DNA from: Eledone cirrhosa
Lineage: Eukaryota
Length of the DNA: 64,000 bases
Direction of reading: 5' to 3'
Assembly: GCA_964016885.1 (NCBI GenBank)
Contig: OZ024742.1
Coordinates: 170,500,001 to 170,564,000, forward strand
A program made the position numbers and the translations under genes. The notes beneath the pieces are model-generated. The model did no database searches. It was not told the origin of the DNA and saw only the letters and a program-made list of their open reading frames with translations. How positions within the stretch are numbered: position 1 is the stretch's first letter; each line of letters begins with the position of its first letter. Below are positions 15,849 to 18,315 of the stretch, piece after piece.

Positions 15849-15890
<42 letters not shown>

Positions 15891-16060
15891 GAATATAAAA
15901 GAAAAACGAACACAGATATATACATATATGTGTTCAAATCGCAAGGGACCAGATTCGCTAAGGTGAAAAGAATACTAACTATAGACAATAGGGTTTGCCA
16001 GACTCAATTTAAGAATAAATCAAGAAAATAAATACAAACCAGAATTGTGGTAGCTACCAA

Positions 16061-16140
16061 TCACCCAGACAGCTTTGGCTATGCTGTTTCGCAAAATTAA
16101 TTGTGAAGAGTAATACCAAATCTTGCTCATCAGTGGGTGA
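16061..16140 (-). ncRNA. Type I hammerhead ribozyme (family A)
   Basis: Reverse complement of the 16877-16956 motif with intact core. Confidence 0.85.
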
Positions 16141-16876
16141 AGAATTAGTATCCTGGACACTTCTAAGTATATTAAAAAACTGAATAGTGTGCGTATATAT
16201 AATAACGCACATGGCATCTGAACTTAGCGTGTCTCACAAACTCACACCACTAAAAATAGCAGCCAGGTTTACTCGGGATTTGAATTAGCTCAACAAATTA
16301 ACGGAGCCGAATATATCAAAGCTATATATTGAGTTAGAAACTCAAAATAGTCTCTTATAATAAAATAGCTCTAGGAAAGAGATTTTTCCGAGCCGTATAT
16401 TATAATTGAATATAAAAGATAAACGAACACAGATATATACATATATGTGTTCAAATCGCAAGGGACCAGATTCGCTAAGGTGAAAAGAATACTAACTATA
16501 GACAATAAGATTTGCCAGACTCAACTTAAGAATAAATCAAGAAAATAAATACAAACCGGAATTGGAACACATATATGTATATATCTGTATTCGTTTTTCT
16601 TTTATATTCAATTATAATATGCGGTTCGGAAAAATCTCTTTCCTAGAGCTATTTTATTATAAGAGACTATTTTGAGTTTCTAACTCAATATATAGCTTTG
16701 ATATATTCGGCTCCGTTAATTTGTTGAGCTAATTCAAATGTCGAGTAAACCTGACTGCTATTTTTAGTGATGTGAGTTTGTGAGACACGCTAATTTCATA
16801 TACCATGTGCGTTATTATATATACGCACACTATTCAGTTTTTTAATTTACTTAGAAGTGTCCAGGATACTAATTCT

Positions 16877-16956
16877 TCACCCACTGATGAGCAAGATTTG
16901 GTATTCCTCTTCACAATTAATTTTGCGAAACAGCATTACCAAAGCTGTCTGGGTGA
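16877..16956 (+). ncRNA. Type I hammerhead ribozyme (family A)
   Basis: tcaccca CTGATGA gcaagatt..aattttgc GAAA cagc attaccaaa gctg TC tgggtga: 7-bp stem I, canonical core, GUC cleavage triplet. Confidence 0.9.
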
Positions 16957-17214
16957 TTGGTAACTACCACAATTTCGGTTTGTATTTATTTTCTTGATTT
17001 ATTCTTAAATTGAATCTGGCAAACCCTATTGTCAATAGTTAGTATTCTTTTCCCCTTAGCGAATCTGGTCCCTTGCGATTTGAACACTTATATGTATATA
17101 TCTGTGTTCGTTTTTCTTTTATATTCAATTATAATATACGGCTCGGAAAAATCTCTTTCCTAGAGCTATTTTATTGTAAGAGACTATTTTGAGTTTCTAA
17201 CTCAATATATAGCT

Positions 17215-18315
17215 TTGTTGTACCGTGACGATGGTCTTTTGACCATGACTAAGTGCGGACCTCGTGCTTGCGAGAGGTTCAGAAAAGAACTCACAGCCTT
17301 CTTTAAAGGCTTCAACCTCTCTATACAGGTTGAGGCCAATCCCTCGGTCGTTAATTACCTCGACGTTACCCTCAATTTATTGAATGGGTTGTATTACCCA
17401 TATAGAAAGCCGAATGATACGCTTAATTACATAAGTAAGCATTCCAACCATCCTGCCAGCATAACCAAGAACCTGGTAAGAAACGTTTCGTTGAGGCTAT
17501 CCCGTCTTTCCACCACCGAGCGTATTTTCAACGATCATTCCACTTATTACAATGAAGCTCTTGCTCGAAGTGGATTTGTCGATAAGGTAGCATATACAGA
17601 GTACGAAAATAGACCTAGAAGAAATAGATCCCGTCGCATTTGTTGGTATAACCCACCATATAATATGGAGGTGGCCACACCATTATCTAAGATCTTTCTT
17701 TCCCTTATTACGAAGCATTTTCCCCCTACACATAAATATAGTAAAATTTTTAATAGAAATACTATTAAAATTTCTTACTCTACGACTCCTAACCGTGCAC
17801 ATAACATCACAGCTTCAAATTTAGCTAAACTACCTAGCCGTAGGAACACGTGCAACCCTGTAGTTAGTACTAACTGTAATTGTAGGAATCGGGCTGATTG
17901 CCCCCTATCCGGGAAATGCCTCTCTAGTAACATTGTCTACAAATGTAAGGTTGTAACACCCACGTCCCGTAGGGCCTACATAGGGTTAACCGCCAATAGA
18001 TTCAAGCAGCGTCTTTACATGCATACCCATTCTTTTCGTTACCCTCTAAGAAGGAATATGACGTCACTTTCAGCTTATATCTGGAGTCTAAAAGACAACC
18101 ACACCCAATATAAGTTACACTGTGAGATCCTAGCTAAGCCTAGATCGTATAACGGAAATAAAAGACCATGTGACCTCTGCGCCGCTGAGGCACTGGAAAT
18201 ACTCTACGCCACAGACCACATCTTAAACAAAAAATCTGAGGCAATTTCGGCTTGTAAACATAAATTGCACAAGACTTTCCTGTATTACAGCCCCACGTTC
18301 TACCCTAACGGATAG
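17215..18315 (+). CDS. Penelope-like element RT (5'-truncated) + GIY-YIG endonuclease
   Basis: LYRDDGL, VNYLDVTL, YRKP, YISKHSNHP, WYNPP, CNCR...CPLSGKC, IVYKCKV...YIGLT..FKQR, CDLC; uninterrupted 366 aa. Confidence 0.9.
   Translation: MLYRDDGLLTMTKCGPRACERFRKELTAFFKGFNLSIQVEANPSVVNYLDVTLNLLNGLYYPYRKPNDTLNYISKHSNHPASITKNLVRNVSLRLSRLSTTERIFNDHSTYYNEALARSGFVDKVAYTEYENRPRRNRSRRICWYNPPYNMEVATPLSKIFLSLITKHFPPTHKYSKIFNRNTIKISYSTTPNRAHNITASNLAKLPSRRNTCNPVVSTNCNCRNRADCPLSGKCLSSNIVYKCKVVTPTSRRAYIGLTANRFKQRLYMHTHSFRYPLRRNMTSLSAYIWSLKDNHTQYKLHCEILAKPRSYNGNKRPCDLCAAEALEILYATDHILNKKSEAISACKHKLHKTFLYYSPTFYPNG

Follow-up and report, generated by a model that had tools for sequence, protein, structure and literature searches.

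The window is the whole 64,000-nt stretch of the Eledone cirrhosa genome that was analysed (GCA_964016885.1, contig OZ024742.1, positions 170,500,001 to 170,564,000). At approximately positions 15858-19344 it contains a composite structure in which a palindrome of a 517-nt hammerhead unit, here called a retrozyme, is followed by a 5′-truncated Hydra-like Penelope copy (family B) that continues through its 3′ UTR to 19292, and then by (TA)n. Its features, and a neighbouring insertion, are as follows.

15858..15883, no strand: left (TA)n target tract, read from the window sequence
15884..16564, minus: retrozyme minus arm, unit positions 350-517 then 1-517, with the tail-less 3′ site at its end
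16062..16139, minus: type I hammerhead, copy in the minus arm
16561..17217, plus: retrozyme plus arm, unit positions 458-517, 1-517 and 1-80
16878..16955, plus: type I hammerhead, copy in the plus arm; predicted cut after 16949, unit position 329
17138..17217, plus: retrozyme "tail", 80 of 86 nt present, without only the final alternating ATATAT
17218..18315, plus: Hydra-like Penelope ORF (family B), 5′-truncated, from YRDD through the GIY-YIG endonuclease
18316..19292, plus: family B 3′ UTR/pLTR, with the tail-less 3′ site at its end
19218..19275, plus: candidate family B hammerhead-like motif with the variant core CAGAAGA
19293..19344, no strand: right (TA)n target tract, read from the window sequence
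20273..22489, no strand: second, separate two-armed family B insertion, with five otherwise unseen alleles in common with the Penelope part

Self-comparison of the window gave a unit period of 517-518 nt and 96% identity between the two local arms. With window position 16621 taken as unit position 1, the minus arm (15878/15884-16564) measures 687 nt or 1.33 units and the plus arm (16561-17217) 657 nt or 1.27 units, in agreement with the first-pass annotation, which had described about 1.3 minus and 1.3 plus copies and the copying of more than one unit. Four rare alleles are common to both arms, pointing to one source lineage of the template or to later conversion. Fold-back, which that annotation had also proposed, fails in its plain form for the minus arm, whose 687 nt are more than the 577 nt of plus arm available for copying in the same order. 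The Penelope reading frame begins L-Y-R-D-D at 17218, is open until 18315, and is on one strand with the plus-arm hammerhead; the junction letters confirm the spacer-less join to the RT at YRDD as first described. Among the matches listed from four of 17 available runs (three contig sets and one RAD-seq) there was no piece bridging 17217/17218, a result that neither supports nor refutes the assembly.

A scan of the window for hammerhead core-like sequences listed nine matches, and Rfam at its gathering score gave none over the whole window. Core matches away from this locus lie at 19463, 31310, 35799, 43249 and 51650, and at 31788 and 31912 within 31702-31998. This last segment is among the other palindromes and tandem units (about 530 and 260 nt) of the window, found at 25621-25984, 30398-30882, 31702-31998, 41975-42831, 51954-53459 and 60871-61980.

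The 517-nt unit and its two 3′ ends

When the genome was searched for the unit alone, it proved to be an independent family, with at least 850 end-motif copies (826 + 24 exact matches to a 25-letter motif); the search with the unit itself returned 3456 candidates, of which the best 40 were scored. The unit is non-coding: no frame of at least 80 aa is contained in it, two listed frames enter its first 150 nt from the flank, and there are no LTRs. Each local arm carries one hammerhead, with core CUGAUGA/GAAA/GUC, for which a constrained fold has three stems at −17.1 kcal/mol (−21.6 and −19.7 unconstrained). The core is intact in 57 of 81 unit copies and is better conserved than its surroundings, with 3.2% mismatch versus 7.2% nearby. 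The family thus combines an intact-core type I hammerhead, absence of coding, tandem head-to-tail arrangement and many dispersed copies, the features of a non-LTR retrozyme.

Metazoan non-LTR retrozymes, as presented in the available text of two reports (PMC7229834; bioRxiv 10.64898/2026.07.22.740005), are likewise non-coding, tandem, dispersed and of high copy number, with a type I hammerhead per unit. The length of 517 nt exceeds the 170-400 nt of the first report and falls within the 51-972 bp of the second. The preprint calls active those retrozymes with two consecutive complete hammerheads; each arm at this locus has one. In our family most copies are head-to-head palindromes of 1-1.3 units whose 3′ ends fall at two fixed sites, an arrangement of which we found no description in the available text of the metazoan retrozyme papers.

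Unit copies end at (TA)n at two sites 86 nt apart, namely position 517 and position 86 of the next unit. We collected 131 unit loci, dropping the present locus and duplicates (one locus is cut by its edge). Among these are 84 two-armed palindromes, 61 of which have one tailed and one tail-less end. Of the rest, three are tailed at both ends and 20 include a ragged end; no palindrome is tail-less at both ends. One-armed copies have the tail at their end in 42 of 46 cases. Three of the four locus sets were picked with tail-containing queries, and in the fourth, the least tail-biased, one end of each kind was found in 16 of 20 copies and two tail-less ends in 0 of 20. The same one-of-each pattern holds for family B: on inspection by eye, all 15 two-armed copies whose ends both lay in range conform to it. 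The retrozyme part of the present locus is by this rule a complete ordinary insertion, its left arm tail-less and its right arm extending 80 nt into the tail, with only the final ATATAT and the (TA)n gone.

The ribozyme cut site is spanned by 99 aligned unit pieces from the 131 loci, and only 3 of 243 arms start there (23 start 11-36 nt downstream of it). The template was therefore probably circular or uncleaved, and the scarcity of arm starts at the cut site led us to reject a linear self-cleaved monomer. Two regions concentrate the arm 5′ ends of these loci and are possible RT stall sites: unit positions 340-365, immediately downstream of the hammerhead, and 440-480, close to a hairpin.

A precedent for two ends comes from the anole Poseidon element PAc, whose reverse transcription has two internal starts on the RNA, one at either boundary of the tail, and whose protein acts at AT-rich sites, cutting and then extending the two DNA strands, with no need for the ribozyme cut; the available text terms this two-site signature unique to PLEs (PMC11167929). 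The two internal starts of PAc match the two ends of our unit and its arms spanning the cut site. PAc is autonomous and was studied in vitro, and its start sites are not homologous to the target, whereas the unit is a non-coding RNA with AT-rich start sites that could in principle pair with (TA)n. Because the two-end rule matches the PLE signature, the insertions of the 517-nt unit were very likely made by a Penelope-type enzyme. The first-pass annotation had proposed that the fused junction would be direct evidence for which enzyme mobilises these RNAs. A Penelope-type enzyme is very likely, on the strength of the family-wide ends; the junction itself is not such evidence and names no enzyme, since a fused mRNA fragment shows a template and not the enzyme that copied it. 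The family-wide tail signature is accordingly the better evidence.

Family B and the age of the two parts

Family B has thousands of candidate copies in the genome, and over the ORF fragment the best 40, those that were scored, show 98% identity. Its natural copy L037 has a 713-aa stop-to-stop frame with RWR at 41, DKT at 119, CNCRNRADC at 568, YIG at 602, CDLC at 666 and CKH at 694. We thus find the Hydra-clade motifs (RWK-like, DKT, CxCX5C, CxxC and CxH, with C-terminal GIY-YIG and no CX2-5CxxC), together with (TA)n insertion, pLTR, inverted arms and tail; Pfam gave no match for the local Penelope fragment. Hydra-clade PLEs, in the available text of their description (PMC8557442), share with family B the single ORF, C-terminal GIY-YIG, RWR, DKT, CxCX5C, CxxC and CxH motifs, (TA)n targets, 5′ truncation, inverted arms and a tail at one end; family B differs in its tail of about 92 nt versus 30-40, its ribozyme core of CAGAAGA versus CUGANGA, and its length of about 3.2 kb versus less than 3 kb. 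Stems II and III of this hammerhead-like motif fold, and stem I does not under constraint. One subfamily is without about 720-760 nt of the 3′ UTR, with identical breakpoints in several copies (L113, L120, L132, and window 20479 and 22265).

The first-pass annotation had the unit unrelated to the 3′ end of this Penelope, and blastn between the two indeed gave no match; their tail regions have a weak likeness, with an alignment score reached by 13 of 1000 shuffles. In full-length family B copies the 713-aa frame follows the family's own pLTR, a 92-nt tail and a short 5′ UTR, and unit sequence is absent from all 39 family B loci fetched, so it is very improbable that the unit is the normal 5′ part or pLTR of family B. 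Misassembly of the locus falls under the same low estimate, since the arms are 3.7% apart and yet have rare alleles in common, which is not expected of a palindromic read artefact.

Family G (L210, L230-L241) is a second young Hydra-like family, with 47% amino-acid identity to family B. It was rejected as the parent of the unit: it carries a hammerhead and a roughly 90-nt tail of its own, and the search for an autonomous parent found no unit match in 14 + 12 fetched family G loci (overlapping sets), except for the nested L210. Inverted G-like pLTR/tail pieces are present in the window at 19680-19900 and 20020-20270, inside a 376-nt tandem duplication. A short hairpin-like motif, CTCC...GTTGAG, follows an initiation site in the unit (window 16255-16420, minus strand), family B (L037) and family G (L237); it is a statistically weak candidate for an RT-binding element.

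We compared the ages of the two parts in samples that, for both families, favour close matches: median inter-arm divergence is 5.1% for the unit (n=53) versus 2.0% for family B (n=18; p=0.0003), and 3.7% for the local unit arms. Locally, 28 of 1016 positions in the unit arms differ from the column majority versus 24 of 2059 in the Penelope part (p=0.003; p=0.03 for the ORF only); the ORF stands at a distance of 1.4% and the UTR at 0.9%, the two complete unit copies at 3.1% and 2.4%. Arm-specific set against rare changes gave p=0.001 to 0.03 with the UTR, and 0.08 and 0.71 for the ORF alone. The closest non-local genome match, among those listed, is 98% for the Penelope ORF versus 95% for the unit, and none of 67 unit copies is as near its own majority as the median family B copy. 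The unit arms thus look about twice as diverged as the Penelope part, i.e., older.

This clock is blurred by subfamily structure, by heterogeneous RNA templates and by local conversion or a shared donor. The five alleles that the local ORF has in common with the neighbouring inverted family B insertion (20273-22489) are absent from 38-40 other aligned copies, and a 28-mer that includes two of these alleles has no occurrence in the 3 Gb genome outside these two copies, which suggests local gene conversion or a common donor. Since some unit insertions have arms just 0-2% apart, the activity of the unit and of family B may have overlapped in time.

The junction and the probable order of insertion

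The junction sits exactly at the start of the expected AT tract, the six absent bases being alternating AT. When 19 family B copies are compared with it, 17 show no overlap and the other two an overlap of 1 nt, and no TA base is left; a TTG repeat is found there. The break falls at unit position 80, within the 86-nt tail and where the family primes; ribozyme cleavage would place the RNA end at position 329. Among the best 40 of 2776 and best 40 of 2544 candidates scored, the junction is unique to this locus.

Similar layouts are not rare elsewhere. A sample from contig C1 comprised 60 loci with 63 motif matches, of which 14 were read-throughs and 49 terminal tails. Two of the 49 continue with 3-8 extra AT bases into a 5′-truncated Penelope on the same strand, of family B at L202 and of family G at L149 (identical to L210). 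The pairing of the unit with other Penelope ORFs, for which the first-pass annotation advised a search, therefore exists with a few AT bases between, and the exact junction was met, among the candidates scored, only here. At L210 the unit is 83-85% like the local unit and the Penelope 99% like its family G relatives; this is best read as a nested insertion, because an old unit adjoins a young Penelope. We also surveyed breaks at position 80, picking joins by sequence pattern: three of the 24 unit copies with a non-A base after that position adjoin foreign DNA, namely the local one, L092, whose partner is a fragment LINE-like by inspection (age not estimated), and L086, whose partner is an old repeat only about 73-82% like its dispersed relatives. 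Six of 39 family B loci (by eye) have a 5′ end that meets unrelated DNA with no TA between, one partner being a truncated SINE-like repeat.

Two of these loci have further structure. L079/L092 (G000:C3:242484225-242487249) consists of a SINE-like fragment, unit 422-80, a LINE-like 3′ fragment and a SINE-like copy, with TA-less joins. At L109/L244 (G000:C1:245078518-245078645) a truncated tRNA-type SINE-like repeat and a nearly full-length family B copy meet head-to-head, with no TA between them. L109 had at first suggested a chimera of two RNAs; its partner, which reads as a tRNA-type SINE, is only 93-97% like its relatives, so that nested insertion fits equally.

We consider it probable that the locus records two insertions, an older complete two-armed non-LTR retrozyme and a younger 5′-truncated Hydra-like Penelope nested at the (TA)n of its tail. 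This reading is favoured because the retrozyme is complete, the outer ends of the whole composite are both tail-less (against 0 of 84 comparable two-armed unit copies and 0 of 15 family B copies), the unit arms look older and there are parallel loci. In the first step, a Penelope-type GIY-YIG/RT would have cut (TA)n and used the two DNA ends as primers on a retrozyme RNA, either circular or an uncleaved multimer, starting at two internal positions separated by 86 nt. This would leave head-to-head arms, one tailed and one tail-less; the two end sites, the one-of-each rule and arms spanning the ribozyme cut site are all observed. In the second step, family B would later have cut the newly made right-hand (TA)n and its mRNA would have been copied from the tail-less site to the recurrent stop near YRDD, with joining on the left after loss of all alternating AT bases. 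Such stops do recur, within 1 nt of the local site in L240 and within 40 nt in L108, L124, L119 and L143, and the local Penelope 5′ end therefore looks like a real RT stop. Against nesting stand the clean break, the absence of TA, the overlap of at most 1 nt, the stop of the unit within 6 nt of the initiation site, and a local age gap whose significance varies with the way of counting; moreover, neither an empty allele nor one with the retrozyme alone came to light.

These same details suit a single event, in which the family B RT stalls at YRDD, its cDNA end primes retrozyme RNA at the tail initiation site, and the other target end primes the tail-less arm. The TA-less junction and 0-1 nt overlap would follow, the unit ends 6 nt short of the main initiation site, where an enzyme preloaded on retrozyme RNA would start, the recurrent stops give the stall a precedent, and L202 has the same partners and layout. 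We nonetheless rate a single event as rather unlikely. It would leave both outer ends tail-less, a state with no example among the two-armed copies of either family; the unit arms look about twice as old; position-80 joins are also made to a LINE-like fragment and an old repeat; and the break is away from the ribozyme-made RNA end. The first-pass annotation had proposed a single jump from Penelope mRNA to hammerhead RNA, and it is not upheld here, the retrozyme part being an ordinary insertion of its own family and the same layout recurring elsewhere with differing ages and partners.

LINE-1 and R2 form template-switch chimeras and show twin priming, with heterologous RNAs joined without a spacer and with inverted 5′ arms, and their template jumps go to the RNA 3′ end. 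The local break differs: it lies at a priming site within the RNA, and 249 nt separate it from the position of the ribozyme cut. A more specific version of the single integration, with a Hydra-clade Penelope cDNA acting as primer for a second complex that carried an unrelated circular hammerhead RNA and began at its tail initiation site, we regard as unlikely.

A later deletion could instead have fused two separate insertions, removing the TA tract, the inverted arm of the Penelope and the 5′ part of its ORF. The tail-bearing inverted arm found in about half of family B copies is indeed absent from the Penelope part, and the TTG repeat is a possible end-joining scar; against this, one-armed tail-less family B copies are common (L122, L127, L130, L134), and the Penelope 5′ end coincides with the recurrent truncation point. 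We hold this proposal to be quite improbable.

Implications for retrozyme mobilisation

PLEs have been proposed as the mobilisers of animal non-LTR retrozymes from common ribozymes, co-occurrence and pLTR similarity. That partnership was put forward in earlier reports (PMC7229834; bioRxiv 10.64898/2026.07.22.740005), the argument in the available text of the preprint being pLTR homology, found there in 21 of 57 Xenopus families, whereas our unit is without convincing homology to the pLTR of families B and G. Literature searches, which covered mainly openly accessible papers, found no earlier description of such chimeras or of the tail signature in retrozymes; of the results given here, the two-site tail rule in a retrozyme family is the one that most merits pursuit.

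One fused junction is not enough to decide on the mobiliser when, as in this genome, the same (TA)n tracts receive insertions of several families; the insertion anatomy of the unit family can decide it. If the single integration were true, then together with the family-wide two-site signature it would mean that a Penelope RT copies retrozyme RNAs in trans without pLTR homology, and would name family B or its ancestor as the enzyme. The unit offers a defined RNA, its two start sites separated by 86 nt, on which Hydra-type proteins could be assayed in vitro, and its two fixed 3′ ends, one of each per palindrome, provide a simple genomic test that can be applied to any retrozyme family.
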